Part shown: piece after piece, positions 32,115 to 64,000 of the stretch
How the letters are laid out: every line of letters begins with the position of its first letter
Numbering within the stretch: position 1 is the stretch's first letter
Origin: Macrostomum lignano
Taxonomy: Eukaryota
Reading direction: 5' to 3'
Length of the DNA: 64,000 nucleotides
Assembly: GCA_002269645.1 (NCBI GenBank)
Contig: NIVC01001574.1
Location: forward strand, 124,001-188,000
The notes under the pieces: generated by a model
What the model saw: the letters and a program-made list of their open reading frames with translations, nothing else
What the model was told of the DNA's origin: nothing
Databases searched by the model: none
Position numbers and translations under genes: made by a program

Positions 32115-33613
32115 ATGACAAATTCAAGAATTGGAAAATTCAATGAATATTTTAACTTGAACATGGGTTTGTACAACCCGAATATTCGAGGAATTGAACC
32201 AAAGTCACAAAGAGGCATTCACCACGATTGGTTATTAATAAATTATTATCACACAGCTGATTATCATATTGGTCATTATTGCCTCATATCCAATAAACAA
32301 CGAGGAATTGGGCTTGATCGTACAAAAGATAATTATAAAGTAGTATTTAAAAACCCAACATCTGATAGTGTTAAAGAGATAAAAATGTTTAATACTCCGA
32401 CAAATCCAAATAAATCAAACGTATACATATTTGATTTTGAAACATATTTAAATGATAATCAACAAGCGTGTCCGTATGCAGTTGGTCTTTTAAACTATAA
32501 CTACTTTTCTAATAATTGTAATGAAAGCCCAGAGACAATAAAGAAACTAACTAAAATATTAATTTCAGATCGCGGGTGTGATTTTAAATCAAACGGAGAA
32601 AAAATCGACCGCCCCGAAGGGTCGCAACCAAAGGTTGATTGCGTTAGAAAAAATTTTAAATACCTTGGTTCAGTTTAGTCAAAAAAGATTGTTTTGATCG
32701 CACACAACTCATCCCGCTTCGATTCATACATACCACTATTTTGCAATATAAAACCAATTAAAATTCTTAAAACACCAAGAGGAATATTATAAATCACTTT
32801 TGTAAATGATTATATGTCAAAAGAGGTATCAGCGTTTATAAATAAAGATAAAAAGAAGAAATATAAGGATTCAAAACAAACAATTACAATGCTTTGTTCA
32901 TATCAACACGCCTCAATGAGTTTAAAAAAGTTTTGCTCGTCAATGACAATTAGAGAGGATTTGCGCAATACATCAAGTGTTCATGACATTACCGAGGACG
33001 ATTATCTAGAACGGATTTATGAGTGGTATGAATATTTACAATTTGATCTTATTTCTTTGTGTGCCTGTATTCATAAGTATAATGAAATCACATATGAAAT
33101 TGGAGGCATGACAATGTTTGATACTCTTACATGTTCAAGTTTAACATTAAAATGTTGGTTTAAAGATTTTGTTAGAGTCGAAGACAAAATGAAACAATAC
33201 CTAAACACAAAACAAAAAACCAACTACATTAAAAAAGTCGAACAAATAATATCCCCGTTGAAAATCGAAGATTATTTTGACTTTAGCAAACTTGAAAAAA
33301 CAAAATATCAAACATTGCTAAGAGAAGAATTTTCGGTTCACTCTCACACAGATCCCTATATAAGAAGGTTTATGCGGGATGCGGTCAAAGGAGGCAGAGT
33401 ATTTGCACTAATAAATAAATACGAGAGCGACTGTTTTCAAACGATAATCGACATTGTAAAAGACCATTTAAAAACACCAACAGCCGAACCATGCGAGGTT
33501 ATATCAACTTATCTCAAAAGCGATTGAGATCAAAAGAAAAAAAAAAGAAAAAAAGAAAAAAAGAAAATTGCAATTAAACTAAAAAACGAATTGGGTACTG
33601 TATCTGATTGCTT

Positions 33614-34062
33614 TGTAACGATGTTGATATTTATTTCTGAAAATATTATAGTGTTATTAATGCCTTTTTAGTATTATATTATTACTCTAGCTACTATTTA
33701 ATAAACGAATCTTAAATTTATTTTATATTTATACATAAAATTTGTTTTACTGTATCATTCATAGAAATACGTTTATTGTATTATTTAAAAGTGGGTTGTT
33801 TCGCATTTTTGTTCTCTAGTGTTTCTTGTCTCGCTGGGCTCGTGTGTGCTGTTGGTTTGTCCGCCGCGTTGTGCCTATTCGCCATACTTAGTACTTACTA
33901 CCAATAATTTAACAGCAACAGTTAACTCCTGTCTTCAAATAAATAATATAATACGGTCAAATACAATCAGTCGAAGTTAAAATTCTAAGCTTTCTTGCTA
34001 CGTGGACTCATTTATTGATAAGTGCATAGCCGTCAGCACCGAACAAGAAGGGTCGCGTCACA
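33614..34062 (+). repeat. 5-prime LTR
   Basis: Matches 47212-47660 with about 8 mismatches counted by eye. Confidence 0.96.
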
Positions 34063-34068
34063 TTATTT

Positions 34069-34085
34069 TGGAGGTCCCACCGAGA
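34069..34085 (+). promoter_or_regulatory. Primer binding site complementary to tRNA-Gln 3-prime end
   Basis: TGGAGGTCCCACCGAGA is the reverse complement of TCTCGGTGGGACCTCCA, the conserved metazoan tRNA-Gln 3-prime end (recalled, not searched). Confidence 0.8.
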
Positions 34086-34808
34086 CGGCTAAATTAAAAT
34101 TGACCCAGCCTGCAATCTACATCGCCGACAACCATTGCTAACCATCTGCATCGTATGCAATCTGCAATCGGCAACAGAAAGCCAACTTGCAACTGCCAGT
34201 GACATTGCCTGTACCTCAGTCAGCCGCCTATCTGCTAGCGCCACTGCAAAGTACTGAGCGTACTGTCTGCCGATCTAGAAAACCGGTCTGAACCAGTTTA
34301 CGCTTTGGCGGCCAACTCTGAACTGGACAACAACCCCCAAGTCACGCGATCAAAGCCAAGGCCATCCACCCGCAGCCAACCCATCCAGCCAATTAGTCAC
34401 GTGACAATCGTCAACACAAATTTGCTAGTCTGTCGGACCTAGAGGCTAATACAAGTCAAGAAATAACCCTAAGGCTTAAGTTGTTTACCAGTTTTGTACC
34501 AACCCAAGGCCAGCCTAATTCTGCAAAATCTGTCAACAAGTCTGCTGAGTCATCGGATCGTGTTTTTGTCTGTCTGCCTGCGAGTACTCCTCATTTTTAA
34601 TTGAGTTGAGAGCGCCGCACCGGTAAAGCGCCCGCTGCAGCTACAATTGGACACTGCCTGTGATTGCAACCTGCGCGAGGGCCTACTGCAGTCAACAGTG
34701 CAAGTGCAATCTGTCATCACTCATCAGCCTGCGACTTCAGCCTAAGCCTACAGCCAGCGGTGACCATCGATAACGCCGGCCAGTGCTGAGCAGCGTCAGC
34801 GACCGAGA

Positions 34809-34872
34809 CGAGTCGAGCTGAGTCGAGTCGAGTCGAGCTGAGTCTAGTCGAGTCGAGTCGAGCTGAGCTGCG
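34809..34872 (+). repeat. (GAGTC/GAGCT)n pentamer microsatellite in the Gypsy leader
   Basis: GAGTCGAGCTGAGTCGAGTC... run. Confidence 0.9.
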
Positions 34873-35171
34873 ACAGACCGAACCGAGCGGTGAACCGAGT
34901 GACCTGGCGAGCGGCGAGCTCCTTCAACGGCCGGACCCGCGGTCCAGCGTCGCAGTTAAGACTGAATTCATTAGTTTTGTCAAGTAGAATAGGGCCTATT
35001 GTGGCAGTAACTATAATAGGATTGCTTACAGATTGAGACTCAATAGCTAGGTTATTTTATAAACTGCCACTTTCTATTTTATTTTTAGCTCTTTTCTTGC
35101 TGGGTTCCTCTTTTTAATTGCCTGTCAGTGTGTCTGTACTCAGTAGTCTGTAATACTTAGCTGCCAAGGTC

Positions 35172-38100
35172 ATGGTAGAGTCCGAGTCGGTAGCCAAGCC
35201 AAGTACAGAGGAACCAGCAGCGAGTGGAGCTAGGACAGGTAGAAGTGGAGAGACAGAGCCAGGAGGCAGAAGTGGAGAGACAGAGCTAGGAGGTAGAAGC
35301 GAGACAGTTGGCAGTAAAATTAAATTGTCAGAGACAGCTGGTGATGACGAGGCGGAGACAGATGAAGGTGACCTGCAGGAGTCCGAGACTTCTTTGGGCG
35401 ATCTGGCCAGGACTTTGGCAGAGATCCGTGACAATGTTAAGTATTCAAAGTCGAGCCCTCGGCTCAGGCCCCCAGCCGCCTATTCGCCCAAAATGAAATT
35501 CGAAATTTGGTGGACCCAGTTCAGCCTGTACTTAGAAGCGAATAACATAGGACGCGAGCACTGGACAGCTGTACTGCTGTCATCGTTGTCGCCAGAGTGC
35601 CAAGAGTACTTCTATAACCAGAGACTGCACGAGAAAGTTTTCGAAACCGCTGTTAAGCAGCTTAAGGGTCGGTACGGCGAACCAACGCATGTGGACCAGT
35701 TTTATATAGAGCTTACATCCGCCCAGCAGCTGCAGTCTGAAAGTATTCAAGAATATTTCGATCGCCTCGTTAGCCTTGCTTACTCTGCGAACTTAAGCCG
35801 CAATGAGTACGAGCCTTTAGTTAGGACGCGATTTTGCTATGGGTTAACTGACAAGTCAATCGCAGAAAAGTTAATCAATTTGCTGCAAGAGAAGCCAAGG
35901 CCGTCTCTCGAAAGACTTTTAAACAGGGCCCGAGACGCCGCCCAAACTAGGCAATTACTCAAATTAGCAGAACCGCCGAAAGTCCGTAGTGTTGAGTCAG
36001 ACGAGATCCAAGCCCTGAAGGCAAGGATCAAGGAGCTTGAAAAGAAACAGTCAAGTCAACAGCAAACGACAGTAAACGACAATAGACACCCTGGAGCCCA
36101 GAGTTTTCAGCCACCGCAGCATGTCCTGAACTCCAGTAACTATAATCACAAGAACCGTAGGCCACCGAAGTGCTTTAGGTGTGGGGAGACAGACCATCTG
36201 ATCGCAGAGTGTCCCTATCCCAAAGAGCCGGGTGCCAGTGCGCCACCTTCGAAGTTCAGGGCTCCGCAGCCGTTCGTCGACCCAAAGGACAGAGGGAAGT
36301 CGAGCCCGAGACCGCCCAGAGAGAGGGGGGTAGTGACCCACTGGAAGGATTCCTACGGGTTCGTCCGGTCCTCCCAAATCGGAGATTCAGTTTTCGTGCA
36401 CCTGTCCCAGCTAGTGCAGCCCCTGATGGACCTGGCCTTAAACCACCAGCTAGTGGGCACCCATGTGACCTTCGGCCGAGTTGCTGACGCTGGAAAGACC
36501 AGGGACCGGGCCATCAGCGTGACTGCAGATTCGGTAGACCCCAAGTGTGCGGAGGCCTCTTCCGACCTGCCCCACTACAAGGCGGGATTCTATGTTCAGA
36601 TCGAGATCGGAGAGACGAAGACCGTGGCCCTCTTGGACCCTGGAGCCAATGCATCGCTGATTTGCCCCAAGATGAGAGACAGGCTAGTAGAGGCGGATCC
36701 CATCAATAATGTCTTCACCCCCGCCCAAATCCAGCGAACTGCGACTGGGTTCAACGGAGCCAGCTCAGAAATCCTGGGAAAGCTCGAGTGTGAGTTGAGC
36801 TTAGGCAAACTGAGGAAGCAGCATATTTTCCTAGTTATCGATGGCTCCCTGAGTGAGACGCTTTTAGGACTGGATTTCTGCAGCAGTTTCCAAATTGTCA
36901 TGGACATGGCCTGTGACCGTGTGACCTGTGCAGGGGAGCATGTCCCAACCCTGTGGGGATCTAGTGACATCTGTAGCGTGAACCGTGTGGTCGCCGCTTG
37001 CGACACGGTCCTGCCGCCGCGCTCAGAAGCCCTGGTCCCAGCTAGAGCCATAGACGCCGAGAGCAACGCCCATGGGGTTATCAGCGCGAGGCTGTTCAAT
37101 TCAGATTCGGCCATCGTGGTCGCTAATTCTCTAGACCAGGTCAGCCCCACCGGCCACGTGTTAGTTAGGGTCCTGAATAGCAATGAAGAAGAGATTACTG
37201 TTGCCAAGGGTGAGGAGGTAGCGTCATTTAAGAAGCTAGGGGACGACGAGAGCGTGGTGTGCACCCGGCTAAACGAAAGCGATTTCAGCTTCGACAAGGT
37301 AGATCTGCTTAACGACAAGCTGGCAAGACTACCCTACCCAGACCCAGGAACAGCCAAGTGGCTAATGAACCAGTTCAATTTGCTAGACTCTAACCTAACT
37401 AAGAAGCAGCTGGATACCACCGTCAAAATGTTAAATTATTTCCTTAGTCAAATTTCTCAGTCCGAAACAGATCTAGGCAAGACCACGCTGCATGAGATGA
37501 CGATCGAGCTCAAAGACCCGAGTTGCCGCCCGATTTCCCAACCGTCCAGGCGGACAACGCCGGCCCAGAAAGAGTTCTTAGACAAGCATATTGCCCAGCT
37601 TTTAGACCAGGGAGTGGTTGAGGAGTGTGACTCTGACTGGTCTTCGCCAATTGTGCTTGTGAAAAAGAAGGACGGTACGTATCGCCTGTGCGTAGACTAC
37701 CGCGCCCTAAACAAGCACATAAAGCCGTGCTCATTTCCTCTGCCGCTGATAGAAGAGTCATTCGATAGTTTGGCGGGCTCCAACGTATTCAGCAGCTTAG
37801 ACCTGACGAGCGCGTACTGGCAAGTAGGAATCAGGGAAGCTGACCGCGATCTCACCGCGTTTTCCTGCCCTCAGGGGACTTTCCGTTGGACCGTTGTTCC
37901 CTTCGGGATAAAGACCGCCCCAGCCAGTTTTGCTAAGCTTATGCATAAGGTTTTCAGACCACTGCTGTTGCGAGTCAGCCTGATTTACCTTGACGACATC
38001 ATCATCAAAGCTAGGAATAATGATGAGATGATATCCCACCTAGCGCTAGTTTTCTGGCAGCTTAGGAAAGCTAATTTGAAGATCAGGCCATCAAAATGTG

Positions 38101-38876
38101 AATTGTTCAAAGACAGGCTTAGGTTTCTGGGATTCGTGGTCTCCTCGAGAGGGATCGAAGCGGACCCCACCAAGACGGAAGCAGTGCGACAGTGGTGTAC
38201 TCCTAGGGATAAAAAAACAGCTGTTATCCTTTCTGGGGTTTGCTAATTATTACAGAAAGTTCGTCCCCAGGTTTTCTATCATAGCCACGCCCCTGTACGC
38301 CTTAGCCAAAAGTTCGGAGAAATTTGTCTGGCGCCAAGTTCACGAGAATGCGTTTCAGGAACTTTAAGGATAGCGGAGTACGATTTCCAAGTGAACCACA
38401 GAGCCGGTCTAGATCACGTTAACGCAGACATCTTCAGTCGAAATCCCAAGTTCAGAGCAGACCATTTCGATTGCCCAACCTGCAGCTTGATCCCAGATTT
38501 CAAAGCCAAGTTCCAGAAGGGTAAAAATGTAGCGCCATCGGAGCCTAGTGAAGTCAAAGCCAACCGCATCAGCGTCGATAGTAGCACCCAGACCCTCGCC
38601 TCCACGGGTAGCCAGACCCTGGAAACTGAGTCCCAATTTGCGGTCGCCGCGCAAAACAAGCCGGTAGTAGATTTAGCTATTCAGACTGAGCGTTTCACTG
38701 AAGTTAATGAGTTAGCCCACGGCAGCGAGCACTTAGCCGCCCCAACTCCTGTTGCGGGCACGGACACAGCTGGGAGTGAACCAGAGACCCGGTCCCCAGC
38801 TGCGGCTCATGCTGTTCAAGTGGAGGACCCGGGTAGATCCGATGTAGCCGCCATAGACTCTGGGTCGGATAGTTAG
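35172..38876 (+). pseudogene. Gypsy Gag-Pol: capsid, CCHC knuckle, cold-shock domain, aspartic protease, RT; RNase H core deleted
   Basis: CFRCGETDHLIAEC; GVVTHWKDSYGFV..VFVHLSQL; ALLDPGA; SSPIVLVKKKDGTYRLCVDYR; YLDD. Frameshift in the A7 run near 38216. AFQEL joins directly to IAEYDF..NADIFSR. Confidence 0.92.
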
Positions 38877-39982
38877 AGTGAAGATGAGGAAGAAGCTGAG
38901 CAGAAAGAAAGAGAATGGATTCGCAGCGCGCAGGAATCGAATATTGACGTGGTGTACCTTAGAGACGCGGTAGCGGGCAGAGAGGAAAGGTTATCCAAGC
39001 AGGAGCTTCAAGGCCATAGCCGGGAGCTGAGAGCCTTATGGGCCATGTTTGGTGAGCTGTCGGTGGAAGAAAATGTACTAGTTAGAAATAGACCAGCTAA
39101 GAAAAGGAAGCCTGCCGCTAAACTGACTGTCATTCCGGAGAGTGCAAACATAGACGAATTAGTGACCTCTTACCACAGATTGATCAACCATTCCGGAGTC
39201 AAGAAGACATTAGGTATCTTAAAGAAGAACTTCCAAATTTTCAACCTGGAAACAGTTGTCAAGAGTGTCGTTGCCAGTTGCGAGATTTGCGCCAGAACTA
39301 AGAAAAACAAACGCAAGAACAAAGCACCGATGCTGCCAACTCTAGCGGGATATCCGAATCAGGTTGTCCATGTAGACCATTGTGGGCCATTTCCGGAACA
39401 GGATGGATTCAGATATCTGCTTGTCATGGTAGACAGATTTTCTGGATTCTTAGAAATCATTCCTGTGAGAGACGTAACTGCTGAGACAACCGCAGCAGCG
39501 ATCCTGACGGAGTGGATTGCTCGCTACGGCACAATGGAGCAATTGGTCTCGGACAATGGGACAGCGTTTATCAATAGCATTGTAGCCGAGTTAACCCGCT
39601 TGTTAGAAATTGACACTGTTAGAATTACTGCCCGTCGCCCTCAGGCCAATGGCAAAGTGGAGCGTACGATTCAAACCATCAAAAGTCAAGTCCGTGCAGT
39701 CACTGCTGAAAGGCATGTGACCTGGCCTTTTGCCGCGAGATGCGCAGGGATGAGCATTAGGTCATTAGAATCCGAGTCCACCGGCATGACGCCTGCCAAG
39801 CTTTTCTTAGGCCGGGAATTCCAGATGCCGCTAGATTTGATGTACAACCCACCTAGGCAAGAGCGCTATGACCCAGCCAGTTATGCACACCTGCTCCACC
39901 GAACTCTAGTTGAAGCCTCTGCCACCGCCAGAGCTGTTAGGAAGAAGGCGCAGTCTAGACAGAAGAGGTACTACGATCGGTC

Positions 39983-42900
39983 TTGACTTAACTTGACTTA
40001 GCTGCAGGGGGCGTCCGGCGGATGCAGCGGGGAGGCGGAGGAGACCGCCCATTCCGCTAGCCCCTGGCGACCAACGACTTCCGTTGAAGTGGTGTCGCTC
40101 AGGGGGACCCGTCGGTCTCGCCTGCAGCGCGGTCCTCCTCACCGACGGTGGGGAAGAAATCAGCTCGTCCGGTGTCCCTGAGGTACCGGGCGAGCAGCGG
40201 GATGCTCTCGGGCCTGCAAACGTCGGAGAGAACCGGGTTTGGCCCGAGGTGAGTGAGCCTGGCCCTGGTGAAAACCGGGCAGTGGCAGATAAAATGCTCG
40301 GCGTTTTCACTGCCTGAGCGGCAGAAGGGGCACCGCTCCTCGGGTACTTGGCCCTGAAGGAAGCGGTGGCGAGAGAAGCAGCCATGCCCGGAGAGGGCCA
40401 TGCTAACTGCTCTGAGGTCTCTGCGGTTGAGCCTGAGGAGGGCTCTACGCAGGAGAGGAGAGGGGCAGGGGACGGCCGCACGGGATTGCCTACAATTCCG
40501 GGTGTCGTGCCACCTGCGGAGATGCTCGGCGTCAGCCCAGCGCTTAACGCGGGAATTGATCACCGAGGCGGGGATGGGGGCACCCGGGCCCGGCCCCAAT
40601 AGCGCGCCGGCGGAGCCAGCCTTGGCCAGCAGGTCAGCGCGCTCGTTGCCGAGGAAGCCGGCGTGGCCCGGGATCTATCTGAGCTCCACCTGGTTGCCTA
40701 GCGCAAGCCCGTTGAGCTGGGTGTTGCAGTCCAGGACGGACCTGGAGCTGGCGGTGCTGCGGCAGAGGGCCCGAAGGGCTGCTTGGCTGTCAGAGTGAAA
40801 AATAAATTTCCGGCCGCTAAGCTGCCTTCGGCGCAGCTCTGCCGCGCAGGAGCTGATGGCAAGCACCTCGCTCTGAAAAACACTGGAGTTGAGCCCAGTG
40901 TGCTGGGAGTAGTTCCACACCACTTCTCCCTTGAAGAAGACGCAAGCTCCGAAGCCTGAAAGACCATGCCTCATAGAGCCGCCAGTGTAACAGTGGACTT
41001 CAGAGTCGCTCCAGCTGTCACTCGCCTCGTGTCGAGGCTGAATGGTAACCTTATACCTTTGGCTCAGGAGAAGGGTGGCTGGGATCGAGTCCGTGAGGAT
41101 GTTGAGCCCGCCACACTCCTCGAGAGCCTTGAGGCAGAGGTCAGAGTGCGGGATAAGCGACCGCTTCTTAAAGGCCCGCACTTTCTTGAAGGCCACCCCA
41201 GCATCCAGAAGACGCCGGGTGCTCTTCGCCGCCTCTCCTTTGATATAAATATCCAAAGGAGGGGCACAGAGGAAGGCATTCATGCCTTCAAAAGGAGTAG
41301 AGGGTGGAGCGCCCATAGTCATGCGGCAGGCTCTGCCCTGGATTTTGTAGAGAGCGTCGAGGTTGCTCTTGACGCTCAGGCCGCTAGCCCACACGAGGCT
41401 GGCGTAACTGATCGAGGGGCGGATGATGGCAGTGTAAATCCACCACAGCTTCCTGGGGGTGAGCCCCCAGGTGGTGCCCACGGCGCGCCTGATCTGAGCC
41501 AGTACAGCCAGGGCTTTTTTGGCTTTAGTTTGAATGTGCGGAGTCCAGTTAAGCCTGTGGTCCAGAGTGAGGCCCAGGCAGCGGACCTGCTTCTCCATGG
41601 AAATATTCTTTCCATAGAGGGTGAGGGGCTTAATGGTCCAGAGCAGTTTGTTGGTAAACATGACTGCTGTGGTTTTCGACTCTGAGAGTCTAAGGCCACA
41701 TTGGTCTGCCCAACGCTCCGCTCGTCCCAGAAAGCCCTGCAGAAGGTCTCTGATGGTCACATCATCGGCATAGCCCACCTTGAGAATGGGGTCGTGGAGA
41801 TCACTGCAAAGCAACTCATCCATGACCATGTTCCAGAGAACGGGGGTGAGAACGCCGCCCTGGGGGCCCCCTTTCAGGACAGGCACCGAAAGAGAGCTGC
41901 CGCTCAGGTGGGCCACAACAGTGCGGTTTCGGATCATGAACATGATCCACCGGACAAGGTGAGGGTGCGTGGCCCTGGATTCCAGGGCTCTGCAAAAGGC
42001 CTCGAAGATGACGTTGTCGAAGGCCCCCTCAATGTCCAGGAAAAGCGAGAGGGCAAAGCCGCTGCCAAGAACGGCCCTCTCCAGGAAGTCAACAATGACA
42101 TGGAGAGCACTCTCGGTTGACCTGCCCGCGCGGAAGGCGTGCTGGTTCTGCGAGAGTGGGAAGCGCTTCAGCTCGACCGAAAGTAGGCGCCAAAGCACCA
42201 GTCTCTCGAGGAGCTTGAGGCAGAAAGAAGTGAGGCTGATAGGCCTGAAGGCCTTCACCGATTGGTAGTCGCTCTTTCCAGGCTTGGGGATAAAGACCAC
42301 CCGGGCCTCTCTCCATGCAACTGGTACATAGCCCAGCTCCACACAAGCTCGAAGGAGACGACAGAGCAGGTCCAGGAAGCGGTGGTTTTTCACCGCCTCG
42401 TGCAAGAACGCTGGGTAGATGCCGTCGGGCCCAGGCGCCTTGAACGGGTTAAAGGACCTTGCCGCTCTAATAATGCGGTCTTTGGTGATCATAGACTTTG
42501 CTAGGCCTTGCCCTCCCACTGTGTGGTCGGGCGGGCCCTGCTGAGTCGGAGATTTAGGGAAAAAACTGTTGAGCATGAGCTCTAGAGTCTCTTCCGAACT
42601 CTCTGTGACCGAGCCGTCAGGTCTCTTCACAACAGAGAGTTTAGAAAAACGGTCATTAGTGAGTGCCTTAACCACGCGGGCTACGGGGCGAGAGCCCTCA
42701 AGCCCTTCGCAATATTGGCGCCACTTGGCCGTCTTGGCCCTTCTGACTTGGCCCTTAAACTCGTGGATCGCACGGGTATAGGCCTCTCTGTCAGATGGGT
42801 CTTTGGTTTTGAGCGCTCGCCTTTGGAGGGTCCTGGCTCGGCGCCGAAGGGCCCCGAGCTCTGGGTTCCACCAGGGAGCAGATTTCTTGCCTTTATAGGC

Positions 42901-45519
42901 CTTTAGGGGCAGGCTGCTTCAAAGGCAGTGGTGATCGCCCCGCCCAGGGAGGAGGCGAGATCGTCCACCACCTGGCAGTCAGAGAGGTCACTGGGGGGTC
43001 AAGATCCCGAAGGCCGCGGCTCAGCTTCGAGCCAAAGGCGGCCCAATCGGTGTTCCTGACGTTCCGACTCCAAGTGACCTTAGGCTTTTGCTTGGTCGGC
43101 CCAATGCAAAAGCGGATAAAGCGGTGGTCCGAGAGCGAGTCCTCGTCCCACACTCGCCAGCCCGTAACTGCGGAAAGCAGTCCGGGTGAGGCGATGGTGG
43201 TGTAATTGACTTCGGCCCACCGCCCATTATTGAACGTTGGTGCATTGCCCACGTTACAGAAGTTGAGGTTAGTGCTGCTGACATAGGCCAGCAGCTCCTC
43301 GCCTCTGCTATTGATGTTCTTGCTGCCCCAATGCAGGTGGTGTGCGTTCACATCCCCTGCAATGAGCAGCTCGAACCGATGGGACGCAGCATAGTCAGTA
43401 AGGTTGACTAACGCGTCGCAGACAACTGGGGCATCGCCCGGGAAATAGGCAGAAGCTACCAGCACAGGTTTATTGGGAATGAGGTTATTGATTTGAACAA
43501 CACAGATGTCCCCAGTCGAGAGATCAGGTCTCATCCATGCCTCAAAAGCTTTTGCAGCAAAGACCAGAGATCTTGGGCGAGGCTGAGAGCCCGCCATGCA
43601 AAAACAGTGGTAGCCAGATGGCACATTATTTGGCTTACCTTTAGTCATCCAGGGCTCCTGTACGAAGACCAGGCCCGGAAGCTGTTGCTCTGCCGTGCGC
43701 ATCAGGTTGACCGACGCCGCCACGCAGTGCTGGGTGTTGATCTGCAGACACCAGGTACACCAGGTCGGCCCTGCCCCGAGGGGTTGGGCCCAGCTGGGAC
43801 GTCCCCACCCTCCCTGGACGAACTGGTGCGCCTAGGCGTCCCGGCGACCTCTCGCCTCAGCTGGGAGATTTTGGCGGTCCGGACTGCCTCAGCTGCACGC
43901 TGGTACAGGCCGCGCCGCTTGGTGCTGCGCGCCGGGCGTCGGTCGCCTCCGCCCTCAGCAGCGCGCTCAGCTTTGCCCGCGCGGCCGTGCTGCCGGGCAG
44001 GGCGGTTTGCTTTGGCAGTCTGAGCAGAGGCTTGCGCCTCGGCCCCGGCCGCCTCCGCATCCCGCCCGCCCTGCTCACTGCCACGGGGAGGGTCGGCCTC
44101 GTAGGAGCGGATGCGCAGCTTCCAAAGGCCGACGTTGATGAAGCTGCCGTGTGGATAACGCCTCATCCAGGCGTCCGACAGCCCACAGCCCCAGGATGGC
44201 TGTGAAGCCAGTGCCGTCGGTGCGCTTAAGGGTGTCATGCACCACTAGGCCCGCGGCGGGAAGCTCCCGGTTGACTGCTAGCAGTCCTTTCCGGAGCTCG
44301 TCAGCAGAGGTAACAACGCTCCTGGCCGGGACCCAGATTCGATGCCTCTTGGTCCGGGGGCGCTCGTCCTCTCTGCAGAAGGCTAGGTTGAGGTCCCAGC
44401 TCTGCTCGGGCAGCAGCTCAAGGAGCCGCCGACCCGAGTCAGCATCACTGGGCCAAATGAGAAGGCACTAGTCCCTCGTCGCATTCGAATGAATGTTCAG
44501 AGGCGTGCCCTTCAGAGTTTGCTTCCACAGGAGGCCATCAACGGCACTTCTCACCTGCTTCAGCTGATCGGGAGACAGGCGCGCGTCCTTTCCCAGGATG
44601 ACAACCGCCAGTTGCCTCTTTGCCGCATCAGCGTAGGAGGCCCGGGGGTCAGTGGAGCTTTCTTCAGGTGGGCTGTCCACCCTCCCGGCTGCATCGGCCT
44701 CCCTATCCTGGGCAGGGGCTTCCGTGGGCTCGAGGCCCTCTTCCGCCACCGCCCCAGACTGGGAAGCTTCCGCTGCCGCGGGCCGTTGGCCCCTGGCACC
44801 GGTTTGGCTTCCGCCCTCCTTGGCCCGCCTCGCCTTGTTAAGTCGACGGCGGGCAGCTCCAGAGGTGGTGCTGCGTTTCTTAGCAGCTGGAGTAGCAGGT
44901 GTCTTCTCGGAGGCACCGCTCAGAGTTGGCTCCACGGGTCTCGCCGAGGCGTCCCCGATGGTAGCAGGTGGTATGGCCGAGGAGTCCACGGCCCCAGCCG
45001 AGGCCGGAGGCACTGTGTCATCCACAGCCGGTTTGTTACTTCGGTTAGAAGCCATTGGCTGGAAGTAAAAAGGTGGGACTTCCTGCAGAACACAGGCAAA
45101 GAGCCGCAAGGCCGCAACCCCAAACCAAGCGGCAGGCCCCCAAAAAGCAAAATACTACCCTGCGGGGGGACCCAAAAGCGCAAGGGGAACCGTTAGCGAC
45201 CAGACTACTCCCTGGCCAAGCGTCCATCAGCACGGAGTTACACTGGGACATTAGAGGGTGCGTTTATGGTCACACCAGGACCCGGCGCCAACGAATCAGC
45301 TCGGCAGGGCCCAAGGGGGCCTGCCTTAACACCCACGGGACGAGTACCCTTCGAAGTGCGCCTTGCAAGGTGAAAATCAGGAGACAGAGTCTCTAGAGCT
45401 ATCAGCCCGCCAGGGGAGGCAGGTGTGAGCATCGCTGGCTGGGATTAAGGCCATACCAGTCTCATACTGCACAGATAGTTCACCACGCCATTGCGTGCAG
45501 GACCCGGGGTCCTGGAGGC
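39983..45519 (-). mobile_element. Full-length LOA/R1-like non-LTR retrotransposon 2 (APE-RT-RNase H-CCHC)
   Basis: 12-bp TSD CTACGATCGGTC (39971-39982, 45520-45531); tail CTAAGTCAAGTTAAGTCAA. ORF1 about 43702-45109. ORF2 about 43760-40099 with VQEPW, SDH, GPQGG, YADD, CPFC..EH..C; frameshifts. Confidence 0.94.
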
Positions 45520-46037
45520 CTACGATCGGTCAGTGTTTAAATCTAGTTTTGAGGTAGGAGAGCTCGTGTGGGTGTTAAACCCCGACCACAAGGGCCTCGA
45601 TCCTTCGGTCTGGCTTGGGCCGTACAAGGTCGCGCAGAAAATTTCAGAGAGAAATTATCGGTTAGTTCCTGAGTTAGCGTGTGAGAATCAGTTTAAAACT
45701 CCGAATCCGAGCCACAAGATTTACAATGTAGATCGTATGAAAAGGTGCATTCGCCAGTCTAGTTATCAGGATGTCGCCGACAGGTTTAGATTAGAATTGG
45801 TTGCGAGGATGCCTCATTCCTCGAGGTTAGGACAGGGTGATGAAGACTCTAGGCAGTTGAGCTGTAGTTCTGACTGCTCTGATTGGGTGTCAGGATTCGA
45901 TCTGGGTCCAGTCTGTCCGGGTGAGCAGCAGACCGTTCCTCCTCCGAGTCAGCACTCCATCCAGCATCAGAGTGCTCAGTCGGTATCTGAACCAGACACG
46001 GAGCCAGCCATAGGAACAGTAGCAGATTCGGCAACAG

Positions 46038-46222
46038 AGCCAATCACAGAACAGATCACTCAGCCAATCACAGAACAGATCACTCAGCCAATCACAGAAC
46101 AGATCACTCAGCCAATCACAGAACAGATCACTCAGCCAATCACAGAACATGTTGCTGAGCCAATCACAGAGCAAAGCACTGAGCCAATCACAGAGCAAGC
46201 CATTGAGCCAGTCACAGAACAC
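46038..46222 (+). repeat. In-frame 24-bp tandem repeat (QPITEQIT) in the integrase C-terminal tail
   Basis: Seven AGCCAATCAC-containing units plus one variant. Confidence 0.92.
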
Positions 46223-46930
46223 ACCGTGCAGCCACACACGGAACCTGCAGAAAATTTGCCAGATAAAGTCAGAACTGAAGCACAAGCGACAGAGCAACCA
46301 CAACCTGAGGCACCAGTAGCACAAGAACAGAAAGTTTCAGAACAGCACGAGCAAGCCACTCAAGAACAGCCAGCTGTCACAACCACAAGGTCTGGTCGCG
46401 CAATTAGACCGCCCATCAGGTTTCGTTCCTTGCTGGCTAATCTTTTTGGTAAAGGTAGCGAGGAGTAGGAATTTTGACGTGTCGTGTGCTGTGTGCCTGT
46501 GTTCTGCACGCCTGTTAGGGGTTCCATTATTCAATTGTCAAATGTCATCTTAAATTTATCGTAGGTTAGTCTATTTTATTGCCGCGATCATAGCCCTTAA
46601 TCCTCGGATTGGGTTTTTTGATCCTAGTTAGGTTTGTCTAGAAATGGCTTAGTTAGATAGGAGTTCAGTCTGACTGTGGCCGTTGGGCTGCAGTCTGTGT
46701 CGGCGAAGCTGTCGCCGCGCTGCCGAGACATTCGAATTTGCCGCCGGTCTTTTGAATTTGCCACCGTTGAATTACAGTTGCTGCCGTGTATTTAACTCTA
46801 TTGGCCATTTGCATTTTATATTTCCTTTTGACAGTTGTCACAAAATATTTTCAAAAATACAAAAAAATATTGATTATTGAATATTGTTACAGGTATACCA
46901 GCTATTGATCGTTCGTTGTTCGAATATTGC

Positions 46931-47048
46931 TTCGATTTTGCCAATGTGTTCGATTTTGCCAATGTGTTCGATTTTGCCAATGTGTTCGATTTTTGCCAAT
47001 GTGTTCGATTTTGCCAATGTGTTCGATTTTTGCCAATGTGTCGATTTT
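46931..47048 (+). repeat. 18-bp tandem repeat TTCGATTTTGCCAATGTG in the Gypsy 3-prime UTR
   Basis: TTCGAT at 46931, 46949, 46967, about 6 units. Confidence 0.9.
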
Positions 47049-47198
47049 TTCTAATGGTGTCGATTTGCTGTTGCCAACTTTCCGGGCCAATTGAGCCTAT
47101 AATTAAAATTCCGTCAATAGCCAATAGATAAGTTTATATCGTTATTAAATTTTGGTCATGTGCTTCGATATTACTGTAAGTAGCTGTATTGCTTTTTT

Positions 47199-47211
47199 GA
47201 GGAGAGGCGAG
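47199..47211 (+). promoter_or_regulatory. Polypurine tract
   Basis: GAGGAGAGGCGAG abutting the 3-prime LTR TG. Confidence 0.85.
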
Positions 47212-47660
47212 TGTAACGATGTTGATATTTATTTCTGAAAATATTATAGTGTTATTAATGCCTTTTTAGTATTATATTACTACTCTAGCTACTATTTATT
47301 AAACGAATCTTAAATTTATTCTATATTTATACATAAAATTTGTTTTACTGTATCATTCATAGAAATACGGGAATTGTATTATTTAAAAGTGGGTTGTTTC
47401 GCATTTTTGTTCTCTAGTGTTTCTTGTCTCGCTGGGCTCGTGTGTGCTGTTGGTTTGTCCGCCGCGTTGTGCCTATTCGCCATACTTAGTACTTACTACC
47501 AATAATTTAACAGCAACAGTTAACTCTTGTCTTCAAATAAATAATATAATACGGTCAAATACAATCAGTCGAAGTTAAAATTCTAAGCTTTCTTGCTACG
47601 TAGACTCATTTATTGATAAGTGCATAGCTGTCAGCACCGAACAAGAAGGGTCGCGTCACA
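47212..47660 (+). repeat. 3-prime LTR
   Basis: Copy of 33614-34062. Confidence 0.96.
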
Positions 47661-48998
47661 GCTTAATGAATTTTGATGGAGTCTCATTGTACCCATCAGC
47701 CATGTCTGATAAAGATAGTGAATACCCAAGAGCAAAAACCGCCAGAGTTTTTGATATAAGCGAGGAAAAATATTTTTTGACACAATTTAATTCACAAAGC
47801 TTTAGACCAAAAACAGCGATTTTAAAGATTATGTACGAGAATCCTAAGACTGTATTTCTCCAACATCTGCCATCTAAAGACAAAGAAAAATTTTATAATC
47901 CAGAAACAAAAGCAAATGAAACAAAAACATTGAATAGGTTTAGAAACGGAAAGGTAATCGACACCCTATGTTCGGTAGACATACAAGAAATTGTAAGAAT
48001 GGGTGGAAAAATATTAAAGATATATAGTGGAATTGTATATGAGAAAAATTACGATTTCTCTCCTTTTCAGAATTATATTACAAACCTTTTTGAAATGAGA
48101 AAAGTATTTAAAAAAGAAAATAACGAGGCGGGATCTGAATTGGTAAAAACATTACTAAATTCATTATATGGTAAAACAGTTCAAAGAGACATTACTTTCA
48201 CAACACATCTCTGGAATTTACAAACATAAAAAAAGAATACGACGACACAATTAAGTCGTATGAGAAAATATGTGACGACTTATATTATGTAGAAAAAAAA
48301 GAAAGACACACAAGAATATGTTGAAGAAGACGATAATCCTACAACAGGTCTTTGTCCGGCACAACTAGGCATATATTTATTTTAGCTCATTCAAGAAGGA
48401 CCATGAATAATTTTATCACATCAATCGACGGATCAAAGACTCCAGAAATTTATTAAGGAGATACCGATTCGTTATATATACATAAAAAACACTGGGATAC
48501 ATTAAATAAAAATGGACACGTCGGAAATAATTTAAGTCAAGGAAAAACCGATTATGGAGAGGGTGGAATTATATTCGGATATTTTATCGCTCCTAAAATT
48601 AAATATTGTCTTTTGTTGAAAGACGATTTTGTAATGGAAGAGAAAAAACATTTAAAGGGTGTGCAAACGATAGGGTTAATTTTGCATCGTTTAAAACTTT
48701 ATATGATGGTCAATCAATAAAAGTAGATAATAATGCACCTTGGAAACGATCGTTTGAGGGTGGTATAACAATTGGTCAAGGTGTCATATCAAAAACATAT
48801 ACACCATCAATTAACACATATAAAAGAGAAAAACCGGATAAAAACGGAGTTATGAAACCATTCTTTGAAAAACTATTTTGATGACAAACCAGAACACGAA
48901 CACACAATAGAATATTATAACAGTTTACTTTTTGATGTTGATTATAATTGTTTTGAGTTTGATATTGATGAACTAGCACTTATAAAAAATTAAAAAAA

Positions 48999-53120: not shown

Positions 53121-53572
53121 TTAAGAGTCTATTTTTATAGACGTCAAAATCTGTTTAAATACTTCGGGGGTTACATTTTTAGTCTTTTCGAGTCGATATA
53201 AAAAATATAACGCCGCCTGTCCACAATAACTTTTATCAAAGGTTTGAAACTGTTCGTGATGATCTCCACATAATCGATTTTTGGTATGGTTAAATTTATC
53301 TTTTATTTCCTTCAATGGAGGTAATGCGTATGAATAAAAAAAAAATAAACAACTTTAGGTTTTGAATAAACTGCTGACCAATGTACACCATTTTCTTTTG
53401 TCGTTTCTATATTGACAATGTAATATCCATATTGCGGTAAATCTTTTATCTCATCTCGCAAAACACATCTGAATGGTTTCATTTTTAATTGCTTTGCCCA
53501 ATTTGTCAATTCAATATTGCTTGTTGTGTCTGTTCCATATCTTTGTTTAAACATATTCCAACTCATTGTCAT
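53121..53572 (-). pseudogene. Adenain-like (Ulp1/C5 family) cysteine maturation protease
   Basis: NIET..NGVHW, YFF[D]SY.LPP, QTFDKSYCG. The expected Asp falls in a T10 run (53336-53345) that causes the frameshift. Confidence 0.85.
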
Positions 53573-54660: not shown

Positions 54661-55323
54661 TCATCCCAAATTTTTACACATGCTTTTGAATGGTTTTGGA
54701 TCTAAACCTGGGTTAAATCTCGCGCGTTTGTTGTGTAAATCGTAGTTATCTAAATCAAACATTACACAACAACTTGCATTCTTTTTTATAATTGCTTCTA
54801 ACTCTCTAAAGGACTGAGTTAGATAAAAAGCACCAATTCCATCTCCTCTACCACTAACAAAAATTTCCTTTTGCAATTCTTGATCGCCGTCATTAATACA
54901 ATCGTCAAAAATAATTAGTGTTTTATCATGCTTTGGAATTTGATCATGTGTTAATCGGGTTGATACTGTGACAGTTGGAGATTTGATGTCTATGTTATCT
55001 GGTTTTTCGGCGGTTGTTTTACGTAACTCCTCAATGTCATTAAGTGTGAATTTCGGTTCATCGTCGTCCTCGTATTGCTCATATGCTCTTAACATTCTAA
55101 ACAAAACATCTTTTTTTAATTTGTTTTTTAATCCATGTTTAAGAAATTCATAATATTTTATTCTAGGTTTGTTTGTATATATTAATAAATTATTATAGTC
55201 TAACATTCCATCTGTTGTTAATAAATCGTAAACAAAGTGTGTTTTTCCTTTACCTGATCCTCCAATAACTAAACAAAGAAAAGGATCATTTGGAAATATA
55301 GGATTGTGTTTTGCTTTTACCAT
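54661..55323 (-). CDS. A32/FtsK-like DNA packaging ATPase
   Basis: Walker A GGSGKGKT, Walker B IIFDD, SGR, LTQS. The C-terminus may be truncated. Confidence 0.9.
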   Translation of the reverse strand: MVKAKHNPIFPNDPFLCLVIGGSGKGKTHFVYDLLTTDGMLDYNNLLIYTNKPRIKYYEFLKHGLKNKLKKDVLFRMLRAYEQYEDDDEPKFTLNDIEELRKTTAEKPDNIDIKSPTVTVSTRLTHDQIPKHDKTLIIFDDCINDGDQELQKEIFVSGRGDGIGAFYLTQSFRELEAIIKKNASCCVMFDLDNYDLHNKRARFNPGLDPKPFKSMCKNLG

Positions 55324-55408
55324 TTTTAAGGAAATAATTTAAATAATGGCGCGACGTTCGGAGAACTGCGCCGCTTACAGCGGGGGCGACGGTCGGAGAC
55401 CTGCGACA

Positions 55409-56704
55409 CTAAAGTGGCGCGTCCTGAACAATGGTTCCGTCGGCTCGTGCAATTGCAGGATATTCCTCTAGAAACAAAACATGCGCATCAACCGCCTGAT
55501 TTCCGGTTTTATTAATCTCCAACATATAATTCAAACCGATATTTGCTACATTTTCTTTCTGTGCGGTTAGATCAAAAACAACCACCGGATGAATGTTTAG
55601 AAACTCGGTGGGAGTATACTGAGGAACTGCATATGCGTCGTTTTTAACATAATCTAGATAATATTTTATAAAATCATTAACATCATTATTACCTATATTT
55701 AGATTAAGGGCTTCTTTAACCGGATAATATTGATCATCAACCTGTAGGCGAATATTCTGGAGATTAAATGCGTTTATTGCAGAAGCTGCGGTATCTGTTG
55801 CCGTGGCTGCTTGGTTTGCTACAGCGCCAGATTGAATCCAATATAAATCCCTATTTGCTCGTTTGCTAATTCTGTTTGTTATTTTAAACCAAACAAGAAT
55901 ATATCTCACCCGACGTTTTGATGTTAGTATCTGCCACTGGAATGAATCCTGATTGTTATTAATTGTTCGCATAAAGTGCCGGCGATTCAAATAAAATATT
56001 TCCTGATCCTTCATTACCTGATCGTTTATATGGGTTAGAAGTGGAGCAGTTACCTCAAGTGTTGGAACAACTAATTGAATTGAAACTATACGAACTGCTA
56101 CATCGGTTGAGATTGGAGTTCCATAAAGTATCCTACCCTGATATCCGCCAGATATTTGCAACTGTACCCCAAATTTTAATCCCTTCCATACCCGATTTGG
56201 TGAGAAGAACTCAAAGAGTGGAAAGATTGAAAAGTCTTGCTCGTATGCGGTTGCATCTGTTAAAACCGCGACTGGGAATTTTTTCTGACGATCTATAAAT
56301 CCTGTGTTTATGTCTTTAGGGTTGGTTAATCTAATTACAGCCGGAACTATGTTTGTATTAAGATAATTAATTAAAGCGGGGGTATCCGCACCAGCTGCGT
56401 TTTGTACATTGGGGAAAATTACTGATTCACCATTACCCTTATCTGGCATCCATCCAACATTATCACCAACCTGTTTTGATAAATAAGTGTAATTTAAATG
56501 TTTAAGAACTCCATTAATCTCTGCAGGATTTGTAGCTGTCTCAACCTCGGCTCCGTTAATTCTTAGTTGCGCTTGGGAAAAACATTTATAAAACCAATCA
56601 TTCTCGATAACACACCCACTGCGGTCGGCGATATCGGGAGCTGTAAGTGGTGTTCCATCATTTCTTGTATATAACCATCTAACACGGAAAAATGGATTTT
56701 TCAT
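55409..56704 (-). CDS. Major capsid protein (double jelly-roll)
   Basis: 431 aa between the ATPase and the divergent ORF: FSQAQLRING..E, W.PD, RYILVWF, LQNIRLQVDDQYYP, VVFDLT. The N-terminus is not resolved. Confidence 0.8.
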   Translation of the reverse strand: MKNPFFRVRWLYTRNDGTPLTAPDIADRSGCVIENDWFYKCFSQAQLRINGAEVETATNPAEINGVLKHLNYTYLSKQVGDNVGWMPDKGNGESVIFPNVQNAAGADTPALINYLNTNIVPAVIRLTNPKDINTGFIDRQKKFPVAVLTDATAYEQDFSIFPLFEFFSPNRVWKGLKFGVQLQISGGYQGRILYGTPISTDVAVRIVSIQLVVPTLEVTAPLLTHINDQVMKDQEIFYLNRRHFMRTINNNQDSFQWQILTSKRRVRYILVWFKITNRISKRANRDLYWIQSGAVANQAATATDTAASAINAFNLQNIRLQVDDQYYPVKEALNLNIGNNDVNDFIKYYLDYVKNDAYAVPQYTPTEFLNIHPVVVFDLTAQKENVANIGLNYMLEINKTGNQAVDAHVLFLEEYPAIARADGTIVQDAPL

Positions 56705-56769
56705 ATCAAGTACAGTATTAGTTGCGCCAATATCAAATGTTACCGTTCCGGTAGTAAAATTGTTATAAA

Positions 56770-57465
56770 ATGGAAACTAAAAAGATTTGTACTAAGTGTG
56801 GTGTAGAAAAATTTTTGGTTGAGTTTAGATTTCGTAAAGATAGAATGTGTATGAGGCTAGATGTCATCAATGCTTAAAAGAAGATAAAAAAATATTATTA
56901 TAAAAATAAAGAAAAATGTAATGCTAAATCTAGAGAGTATAAAATAACTCATAGAGAAAAACTGAATAAATATCTTAAAGAATATGCGGCATCCCATAAA
57001 AACGAAAGAAAAAATTATTATCATATTAATAAAGAAAAAATAAATGAGAAGCGTAGGCTGCAGCGAGAAAATAATGAAAATGTTAAAGTTTTAGATAATT
57101 TTAGAAGAAGAATTAATTTTGAATTAACTAAAAATAATACAACAAGAGATATGTCATCTATTGTTTATTTGGGTTGCTCAATTGATTTCTTTATAGATTG
57201 GTTAAATTTCACAAAACATTATTACGTCCCAAAAGATTATAATGGCCTTTTGCATATTGATCGTTTTATACCGGCTTCTTCTTTTGATTATCATAATGAA
57301 GAACAAATTAAAAAGTCTGAGCATTGGACAAATAAAAGGTACTTAGTTGCTACAGATAATATTTCAAAAAAGGATAAACAACCATCTATAGAAGATTTCG
57401 CAAAACAATTAGTGCTAACTTGTATTTTTAAGGCCATTAAAAATGAGCAATCAACTCGTGCATGA
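56770..57465 (+). pseudogene. Zn-finger plus HNH-endonuclease-like ORF of giant-virus type (frameshifted)
   Basis: METKKICTKCGVEK..F...CHQC, then a K/E/Y-rich helix, then YLGCSIDFFIDWL, HIDRFIPASSF, HWTNKRYL.ATDN.SK. Confidence 0.6.
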
Positions 57466-59055
57466 AGGTGGGTTGTTAGATGTTCAAAAAGGATTAACAA
57501 GCTTGCCGAGTGTTTTTACAAGTGGGAAGTATACGAATGAACTACATATTCCAGGCTATTCATTTACAGGTTACTCGTGGCCTAAGTGAGGAAGTCAATG
57601 TCCTTGCTAGTCACTGTTTTAGTGGCGACACCTTCAAATTGCTTGAAACCCGTCATACAGCTTCAAGTACCACTTCAATTGAGAAATCTTTTGAAGGAAC
57701 AGAGGTAACTCCTCTTCCCAATCGGACTTTGTCCGCGAACCTATGGTTCGAAGGTAACAAGCTTGAAGACAAGGTGGCAATGCGCAGCCAAGCTCCTAAG
57801 TATTTAATATAAGGAGAGATATAAGGTTCAGAGAGCAGACGGAGGTGGGCGGTAATCATCACCGCTTAAGGTGTGCTCCAGCCTCTTTCGAAAGATTGAG
57901 GGTAAACTACCCGGGACTCGACTCGATCTCCGATTAAATCCAGATGACACTCCAAAGCCTGATTCGATTCCCATTAATGGTATAGATTGGTTAGCATATT
58001 ATCATGACTTAGCATACAGAGATGCCGACAAGAACTCACCCGAGGAAGCATTAAGATTAAAGCATGAAGCTGATAGAAAAATGATTGAAGGGTTGGATAA
58101 TCTACAGGGGTTATCAGTAAGCCAAAGATTAACTTGGTGGATGGTTAAAAAGATTCTGCAGTCTAAAGTTAAATTTGGTTTAGGAATTAATTACAACCAA
58201 CATGGAAATAATTGTGTTGAGTGTTTGTTATTAAGTGGTGGTGGGTTAAGTTCTGATGAGGCAAAAATTCTTCACAAAGAATACCGAAAGCCCAAATTTT
58301 ATAGAAAAATCATGAACTTCAAAAAGAATGAAATTTGGTATGCTGATTTAATGGCTATGCCGGCCGAAAGGGGATATAAATATATTTTAACTATATTAGA
58401 TGGTTTTACTCGGTATGCGTGGGCAGTTCCTTTGAAATCCAAAAAAAGGAGATGAGATTGCAAGTGCTTTTAGGAATCTTGGAGAAAAAAGCGAAAGGTT
58501 GTGTGTTGATGAGGGAAAAGAATTTTACAATCAACATATGTATAAATTATATCATTTTGAAAAAGGAAAAGAAAGGAAAAAGGACGCAAATGGTGAGTAT
58601 AATAATAAGATTTATTCTATTTATGGCGAGAGCAAAAACGCTTTAATTGAAAGATTTAATCGAACTTTAAGTAAGAAATTATGGTTTCAGTTTAGTCTGA
58701 ATGGTAACCAAAAGTGGGTACAAATATTACCAGACGTAGTGAAAGATTATAGTAATTCATATCATTCGGCGATTGAAATGAGCCCACAACAAGCTTATAA
58801 CAATCCTGAAAAAGTTAAAGTTACTTTTGGAGAGTTTGAAAAAAAGAAAACTAAACCTTTTAAAGTTGGTGACTCTGTTTATATCTATAAATGGAAAGAT
58901 AAGTTTGAAAAGGGAAGAAAAGGATATTGGAAAATAAGTGAAAAATTTACTATCAGTAAAGTTTTAAATACAAATCCTACAACCTATATCATTGCTGATA
59001 AAGATGGTGAAGAAATATTGGGCTCATTTTATGAGAATCAGATAATATCTGCGAA
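57443..59055 (+). pseudogene. Parvoviral-type phospholipase A2 fused in frame to the Polinton DDE integrase
   Basis: MSNQ..ELHIPGYSFTG|PGTRL (split by an insert) ..PINGIDWLAYYHDLAY, continuing without a stop to LHKEYRK..IWYADL..LDGFTRYAW. Frameshift near 58445, then DEGKEF, IERFNRTL, GSFYE. Confidence 0.85.
57571..57908. mobile_element. 338-bp insertion of unknown class in the PLA2 calcium-binding loop
   Basis: Higher GC than its flanks. Removal restores TTT ACA GGA CCC GGG ACT (FTGPGT). No clear TIR or TSD. Confidence 0.7.
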
Positions 59056-59151
59056 CTACTTACTTACTTACTTACTACTGACGGGGGGCGCAGGCGCCGC
59101 GAATAGGCCGCGAGGCCCCTATCGCAACCCCAAGGTAAAAGAGCACAAGGA

Positions 59152-64000
<4,849 letters not shown>

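Follow-up and report, generated by a model that had tools for sequence, protein, structure and literature searches.

According to the accessible passages of a 2013 review, nuclear group I introns occur only in the rRNA genes of eukaryotic microorganisms (PMC3679873), and a survey from 2025 reports, in the sections available, group I introns in Polinton-like viruses from just a few groups of protists (PMC12220804). A terminal G is described as nearly universal among group I introns in the same passages of the review and in a second publication (PMC3679873; PMC6545197). The latter also includes, in its section 8, a coral mitochondrial intron without terminal G, for which precise exon ligation was found in vivo, with low efficiency (PMC6545197). 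The phospholipase A2 (PLA2) of Polintons is treated as a gene of its own in excerpts of PMC8502044 and PMC5803895, and a figure label in PMC3671162 presents it likewise. For mavirus, the available part of PMC6048507 reports a protease which cleaves GG|X and GX|G, as well as virions that contain the integrase and a cleaved predicted hydrolase. Enzymes of the Eco47II type have been assigned the target GGNCC, as stated in the consulted part of PMC10305163. In the literature searched, which covers few subscription papers, no report of a group I intron in an animal Polinton was found.

The window analysed here, a stretch of 64,000 nucleotides from Macrostomum lignano (contig NIVC01001574.1), includes a gene with a 338-bp insert, which belongs to an AT-rich animal Polinton (adintovirus-like) element. 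That the host is an animal follows from 86 Wnt-family matches in the genome. Protein-primed DNA polymerase B (PolB), retroviral-type (rve) integrase, A32 ATPase, capsid and terminal repeats with AGT ends were found as hallmarks of a Polinton, with the ends seen in sister elements and the right end being lost in the window. On the minus strand of the window are located a putative adenain-like maturation protease gene, which is frameshifted (53200..53569; assigned from motifs noted by eye in a sister ORF), an A32-type packaging ATPase (54661..55338; Pfam Pox_A32) and a major-capsid-like gene (55409..56776; assigned by its position and its match to sister elements). A double-jelly-roll Pfam match was obtained only for the capsid gene of a second Polinton family, which is described below. 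In a sister element the protease ORF exhibits His-Trp, FDS, Gln and Cys-Gly motifs, which we take to be the adenain-like pattern; the protease gave no Pfam match, and a sequence search with the protein of the second family yielded no match in the PDB. The fragmented 3′ part of PolB is found on the plus strand (47579..48881; Pfam DNA_pol_B_2), and its 5′ part, located by blastn to sister elements, lies at about 30684-33613, beyond nested retroelements. Positions 29062-59058 represent one Polinton, split by about 14 kb of nested retroelements (around 34000-47500; an LTR-type element with a non-LTR element inside) and with a terminal-repeat match at 29062-29203. At the other side, a non-LTR retrotransposon (59058..64000, minus strand) sits at the stop codon of the integrase and truncates the right end of the element. 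Further upstream in the window, at 5913-8943 and 12341-12997, translations inspected by eye pointed to a DIRS-like retroelement, whose ORF resembles a tyrosine recombinase, and to a piggyBac-like remnant. In the second, nuclease-bearing family a Prim-Pol/D5 primase-helicase was observed beside a PolB with an endonuclease VII domain (L102:2449-4944).

The first-pass annotation had proposed that a single frame runs from a PLA2 into an integrase once the 338-bp insert is removed, and this is indeed how natural intron-free copies read. Exon 1 (57443..57571, plus strand), delimited with the help of the natural intron-free alleles L069-L071, starts with an ATG at 57443 and comprises 43 codons. It includes HEGG-LL (57461-57475) and GYSFTG (57554-57571) and ends with a Gly of the PLA2 calcium loop, its last base, U, being the group I 5′ splice site. 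Exon 2 begins at 57910 in phase 0 and is open for 181 codons in the window copy. Its first part (57910..58185, plus strand) encodes the remainder of the parvovirus-type PLA2, with the catalytic motif YYHDLAY (57997-58017) and the end of the domain at KxKFGLG, a conserved motif and candidate GX|G protease site (FGLG at 58174-58185). A linker that is predicted to be disordered follows (58186..58245, plus strand) and holds LSGGG (58231-58245) as a second, clade-specific candidate site, after which the frame reaches the first Asp motif of the rve integrase, WYADL (58336-58350). The integrase (58246..59058, plus strand) has its D, D and E motifs at 58336-58350, 58502-58516 and 58646-58666; in the window copy a one-base indel near 58440 disrupts it and, as a second lesion, the tail of the non-LTR retrotransposon begins at its stop codon near 59058. 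An internal Met in exon 2 gives rise to a 325-aa ORF with the whole integrase. The linker (58186-58230) also contains a His and a CxxC, kept in both Polinton families and in the closest public relatives, which possibly form a metal site.

Pfam searches of the window gave Phospholip_A2_4 with E=0.013 for exon 2 alone and rve with E=1.4e-5, and on a natural intron-free copy the PLA2 scored 33.4 bits against a cut-off of 23.9. The intron-free allele contains both the YxGPG-like calcium loop and the HDxxY catalytic motif of a parvovirus-type PLA2. The structure model of the intron-free protein includes a confident helical domain (about residues 21-131) and a confident integrase domain, which matches the foamy-virus intasome (E 7e-15), as well as two low-confidence stretches (1-15 and 133-153) holding the glycine motifs.

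Sister loci of the window family were collected by a DNA search (41 matches from 40 scored of 233 candidates), and 30 of them were fetched. In 17 of the 30 loci fetched, exon 2 forms an open frame of 381-396 codons, so the fusion is no artefact of the window copy, and the stop between the domains which the first-pass annotation had considered for intact sisters was not seen there. A protein search additionally revealed three uninterrupted alleles of the window family (L069-L071), which are 89-92% identical to the window exon 2 and contiguous at the site; a larger set of uninterrupted alleles belongs to the second Polinton family. Public data contained 457 matching proteins, and PF08398 and PF00665 occur together in 70 of the best 120. 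Whether the fusion is thereby already routine has two sides: it is common in public sequences, but the literature passages at hand show a separate Polinton PLA2 gene, and no description of the fusion was found in the literature searched, supplements aside. It might, nevertheless, already be shown in Fig. S2 of PMC8502044 (the Starrett genome maps) or in Repbase entries.

The linker was inspected for candidate protease sites in those 60 of the best 120 relatives whose two motifs could both be parsed. GG or GxG was present in 55 of these 60 linkers, compared with 1.5% of control windows of the same length taken from the integrase part. The consensus of adenain is [MIL]xGG|x or [MIL]xGx|G; strict [MIL]xGG was found in 3/60 linkers, and [MIL]xGG or [MIL]xGxG in 7/60. 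At the junction the strict consensus is conserved only in the window clade (30 of 30 loci), where LSGGG is found in 24 loci and LSGSG in six. The proposed protease site at the junction therefore holds as a general GG/GxG motif, but not as an adenain consensus shared by the relatives, and no conserved LxGG linker emerged among them: FGLG is conserved, with K128 and G132 of KxKFGLG being invariant in 66 aligned proteins, and LSGG is local to the clade. G[GS] precedes the PLA2 in 32 of 39 relatives, a count made without control. The HEGG reported near the start of the protein is present in the window, but its H is replaced by F in sister exons. In the model of the intron-free copy the linker had a pLDDT under 50. 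The conserved GG/GxG linker, together with the mavirus precedent, makes it likely that the fusion protein is processed by the viral protease, with FGLG as a putative general site and LSGGG as a putative second, local one.

The 338-bp insert had been regarded as a mere interruption to be removed. It is, however, a structured ribozyme, located at one fixed site in two Polinton families which are about 67% identical in DNA. In the window it represents an IC1-like group I intron of 338 nt without an ORF of its own and with A as its last base (57572..57909, plus strand; Rfam RF00028). The full RF00028 model gave 56.4 bits (E 2.5e-12), with a gathering score of 50, and the P3-P7 pseudoknot core with the conserved P, Q, R and S elements is thus present. 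The P1 guide is found at 57580-57584, and P3 (57629-57635 with 57841-57847), P7 (57831-57837 with 57874-57879, the G-binding G-C pair being intact) and P9.0 (57880-57881 with 57907-57908) could all be assigned. Lesions of the window intron comprise one unpaired position each in P1 and P4 and extra bases between P6a and P6; its fold has a z of -2.4. Across 16 aligned copies and 56 named pairs, 97.2% of 896 cells were paired, compared with 35-49% in slid controls, and in 11 of the 56 pairs both partners had changed (three P7 pairs, which differ between one family and the other, and further pairs in P2, P3, P4, P5a, P6a and P9). These counts come from related sequences, one of which also served to draw the structure. 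All 16 aligned copies have U-G at the 5′ splice site of P1, and 15, the window copy included, have the G-binding G-C pair of P7. The boundaries of the intron are set by natural intron-free copies (presence or absence compared with the contiguous L069-L071). A spliceosomal intron was rejected, as a 3′ AG is lacking and the empty alleles fix the boundary as U|U...A|C.

Within each of the two families some introns have and others lack a 30-nt module of two hairpins in the P5 region (window about 57730-57760; alignment A2, columns 742-771), a pattern suggestive of recombination between introns. At L007:1712, a position in the P2.1 loop that corresponds to that of the nuclease gene, three further kinds of insert were observed in public-run contigs, one of which matches L054. 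Rfam searches found no intron in 20 of 79 metagenome loci, nor in 12 of 31 viral loci; as the same search missed the A-ending intron of L099 at the gathering score, these blanks are weak. Among the sequencing runs listed as containing the sequence, none was recorded as RNA. When the A-ending sister L007:1400-3200 was compared with four contig sets guessed to be RNA, no joint spanning the intron was among the matches listed; as these contigs show presence only, the result speaks neither for nor against splicing. A 14-letter probe for the empty site gave 79 matches, compared with 38 for the control, and the PLA2 gene was found in none of the ten loci read.

The window copy ends in A and does not have the terminal G of group I introns; as an exception without terminal G is known, the A-ending intron is regarded as a variant and not as a non-member. 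At least 107 copies of the window-family intron were found by the exact motif of its 3′ end, 83 with A and 24 with G. Among the 30 fetched loci of this family the last base was A in 26 and G in four, and all 24 parsed copies of the nuclease-bearing second family exhibited a terminal G. A shift of the 3′ splice site to a nearby G was considered and rejected: it breaks the frame or the calcium loop, and the last intron base is set by the P9.0 pairing. For A-ending copies, 18 loci with a visible right end gave 16 different flanks; these copies occur in five intron length variants and show compensatory changes among themselves in P2, P3 and P9. Calculated over the 13 distinct copies of 21 usable A-ending ones, pN/pS was 0.07 for the PLA2 part and 0.33 for exon 1. 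From such sequence features we infer that the A-ending intron still splices.

A search of the genome with Rfam gave 28 scored matches, all of which belong to the second Polinton family and lie at the same insertion site (L031-L058). The introns of this family have a length of 836-894 nt and contain an ORF of about 228 codons, whose start lies in the P2.1 loop and whose frame extends into the ribozyme core. This ORF matches Pfam RE_Eco47II above cut-off; RE_Eco47II was likewise found in 14 of 14 aligned homologues (E under 0.1), in which D...ExK is invariant. The predicted structure of the nuclease (pLDDT 87) has its best fold match in EcoO109I, with a Z of 9.8, the sole Z above 8. The target of EcoO109I is RGGNCCY. 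The nuclease can thus be placed in the PD-(D/E)xK restriction family, but a cognate methyltransferase was not found: none of the 16 ORFs of at least 110 aa in the element read end to end (G000:C2696) and none of 14 window ORFs had a methyltransferase Pfam match. In 12 of the 30 loci of the window family the same nuclease, about 66% identical and free-standing, immediately precedes the gene. The window itself holds at this place a free-standing HNH-like ORF (56878..57465, plus strand), which overlaps the start of the fusion, and not the nuclease; a nuclease gene within or beside the intron, as is typical of mobile introns, is hence seen in sisters and not in the window copy. The slot upstream of the fusion is swappable, with HNH-like ORFs in 15 of the loci L001-L030 (the window included), Eco47II-like ones in 12 and no assignment in three. 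All 12 Eco47II-like loci have A-ending introns, and all four G-ending loci are HNH-like. Of 16 public homologues of the nuclease, with an identity of 49-63%, eight have a C-terminal end translated from the same ribozyme core; the intron-nuclease system therefore exists beyond the M. lignano genome. Distant homologues with 29-38% identity were observed in giant-virus contigs.

Five intron-bearing sisters, one of them covered over its full length and the other four in part, contained no GGNCC at all, with 19.2, 9.2, 9.7, 12.1 and 14.0 sites expected, and two intron-free elements contained one and two sites, the empty site among them, with 11.6 and 13.1 expected; as the elements tested are related, these are not seven independent events. 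The decayed window element contained two sites (11.7 expected). Ranked against all 256 gapped words in two pooled elements, GGNCC came last (0 vs 63), and in six host stretches it was not depleted. The dipeptide Gly-Pro was found in none of the long ORFs of the intron-bearing elements, and each intron-free element has it once. At the empty site, GGNCC was seen in 21 of 26 loci with a contiguous match (the remaining five were not parsed); GGNCC stands there because it encodes Gly-Pro and, as any Gly-Pro reads GGNCC, this match is not independent of the protein sequence. Among 77 public related loci of at least 3 kb, GGNCC amounted to 393.5 compared with 474.8 expected, with six loci being depleted, and loci of the distant giant-virus nuclease homologues were depleted in one of ten cases. 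A giant-virus-type contig with such a distant homologue (L264) had 30 GGNCC compared with 105.5 expected, and a public viral contig with a related integrase (L127) had none compared with 6.3. In the elements G000:C2858, C4175, C2506, C3967 and C3031 also CCNGG and CTNAG were under-represented about twofold, which is perhaps the trace of a second nuclease.

The reading which we favour, and which we regard as probable, is that the PLA2-integrase gene of an animal Polinton is split by a group I intron lying on GGNCC, and that this intron would both protect its element from the nuclease of sister copies and spread into intron-free copies, with splicing being predicted to restore a fusion that is likely cut by the viral protease. 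The nuclease would most likely cut GGNCC, judging from the target of its family and from the purge of this site. Once all other sites are purged, a five-base cutter would become specific for a single site in an 18-kb genome, with no need for a methyltransferase. The element would have lost every GGNCC that it could recode; the invariant Gly-Pro of the calcium loop is presumably not recodable, so that only an intron could break the word in the DNA and keep the protein. Such an intron would split GGNCC in the DNA, and its splicing would restore the protein. Intron-free copies would keep the target and be either converted or destroyed, which amounts to homing with a short-site enzyme; breaks at empty sites would be repaired from intron-bearing copies, and homing would be collaborative wherever the nuclease is free-standing. 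The fusion protein would be packaged, with cleavage at GG|X or GX|G sites before and after the PLA2. Several observations speak against this reading. The window copy is without the nuclease, has two GGNCC elsewhere and carries lesions in the intron and the integrase; distant giant-virus homologues come with depletion in only one of ten loci; the last-base A departs from a near-universal G, and the coral intron splices poorly. The A-ending copies could also be complemented in trans, and the divergence of their exons may predate the A. Moreover, a five-base cutter would hit host DNA as well, where GGNCC is not depleted. A long recognition site would spare host DNA, with GGNCC there at its expected frequency, and PD-(D/E)xK homing endonucleases with long sites do exist. 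It could hence be argued that the nuclease is an ordinary long-site homing enzyme and that GGNCC was purged for another cause, e.g., a restriction enzyme of a helper giant virus or of an older host, and the distant nuclease homologues in giant-virus contigs would fit with this. We consider it unlikely, as the word that was purged coincides exactly with the target given for the Pfam family of the nuclease, the loss covers the whole 5-mer although RGGNCCY would account for just about a quarter of such sites, and the exon flanks near the site vary strongly among the carriers.

A total purge of the sites, the lack of a detected methyltransferase and the free-standing nuclease of many copies would also suit a weapon directed mainly against the DNA of the host or of rival viruses in a lytic phase, with the intron as a fixed immunity device. 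This appears very improbable, given that intron-free alleles persist, that the same intron occurs in two divergent families with varied exon backgrounds and that in one family the nuclease lies inside the intron, which is the layout of a mobile intron. With regard to splicing, the A-ending intron might be dead and its carriers devoid of PLA2, i.e. non-autonomous passengers which use the protein of G-ending or intron-free copies (or an integrase started at the internal Met). The near universality of the terminal G in the accessible text of PMC3679873 and PMC6545197, the 325-aa ORF and the coexistence of 24 G-ending as well as intron-free copies in the genome are in line with this idea. The A-ending form is, however, the majority (83 of 107) and has five length variants, its compensatory pairs are kept and its PLA2 codons are under purifying selection, and the coral intron splices in vivo without terminal G, as the available section of PMC6545197 reports; a dead intron is thus quite unlikely in our opinion. 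That the fusion and its protease site are the whole story, with the insert being neutral and inactivating, can hardly be maintained. The fusion and its glycine motifs are real and conserved, and mavirus offers a precedent, but the insert, as a structured ribozyme, occupies a single fixed position in two families and in one of them contains a nuclease, and the covariation and the nuclease-bearing form already contradict such a view. The favoured homing reading can be taken further, albeit tentatively and with some doubt: the element could be an animal DNA virus with a methylation-free restriction system, which encodes a GGNCC cutter, has erased GGNCC and hence Gly-Pro genome-wide, and hides its one indispensable site in an active, mostly A-ending self-splicing intron that would work on nuclear mRNA of animal cells and gate a virion lipase-integrase polyprotein.

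The intron-nuclease-purge system is the notable finding of this analysis; the fusion is real but not rare, and its cleavage is plausible. To our knowledge, group I introns of animals are considered to be missing from the nuclear genome, organelles being the exception. Here, at least 107 copies are present in a protein gene of one element family in animal chromosomes, and empty, G-ending, A-ending and nuclease-bearing alleles coexist. This coexistence makes it possible to test the splicing of mRNA by a ribozyme in an animal nucleus, the second splicing step with a terminal A and the transition from a restriction enzyme to a homing endonuclease. The fusion, in turn, suggests a route by which Polintons could deliver an entry lipase and an integrase as one virion protein, and it is common enough for surveys.

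In comparison with described systems, the parvovirus-type PLA2 of the window family resembles adintovirus PLA2X and insect Maverick CAP, which likewise occur in animal Polintons and are thought, in the passages of PMC8502044 and PMC5803895 available, to aid entry; those are separate genes, whereas here the PLA2 is the N-terminal domain of the integrase. Mavirus packages an integrase and a predicted lipase-type hydrolase (MV02, MV13) and has a protease (MVP) with the rule GG|X and GX|G, according to the available part of PMC6048507. There, integrase and hydrolase are separate genes, whereas in the window family they form one ORF in which candidate motifs of this kind flank the PLA2. With Eco47II and EcoO109I the associated nuclease shares the Pfam family, D...ExK and the fold; unlike for these enzymes, no partner methyltransferase was found, and self-protection apparently consists of site loss plus the intron.

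Among introns, the nuclear IC1 rDNA introns of the Tetrahymena type share the P1-P9 core, P2.1, a large P5 extension, the 5′ U-G, the G-C pair of P7 and the occurrence of nuclease-bearing and nuclease-free forms, as far as described in the accessible passages of PMC3679873. They sit, however, in rRNA genes, and the window-family intron interrupts a protein gene, carried by an element in the chromosomes of an animal. The coral mitochondrial ND5-717 is likewise an animal group I intron without terminal G, and it is spliced (PMC6545197, in the section available). It is mitochondrial, vertically inherited and giant, whereas the window-family intron is nuclear-integrated, small, multicopy and polymorphic for A and G. 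Closer in setting are the Polinton-like viruses of the protists Paulinella, Desmodesmus and Rhodomonas, integrated elements as well, in which a protein gene is interrupted by RF00028 introns about 300-380 nt long; in the sections of PMC12220804 at hand this gene is short and unannotated, with no nuclease assigned. The system described here differs by its animal host, the PLA2-integrase gene, the Eco47II-like nuclease in or beside the intron and the mostly A-ending form. In the collaborative homing of phages, which relies on free-standing endonucleases, as presented in the excerpt of PMC11296320, a nuclease gene likewise adjoins an ORF-less intron that interrupts the presumed target. The Polinton system departs from it in having a nuclease of a type II restriction family, a predicted site of five bases and a genome-wide purge of this site.
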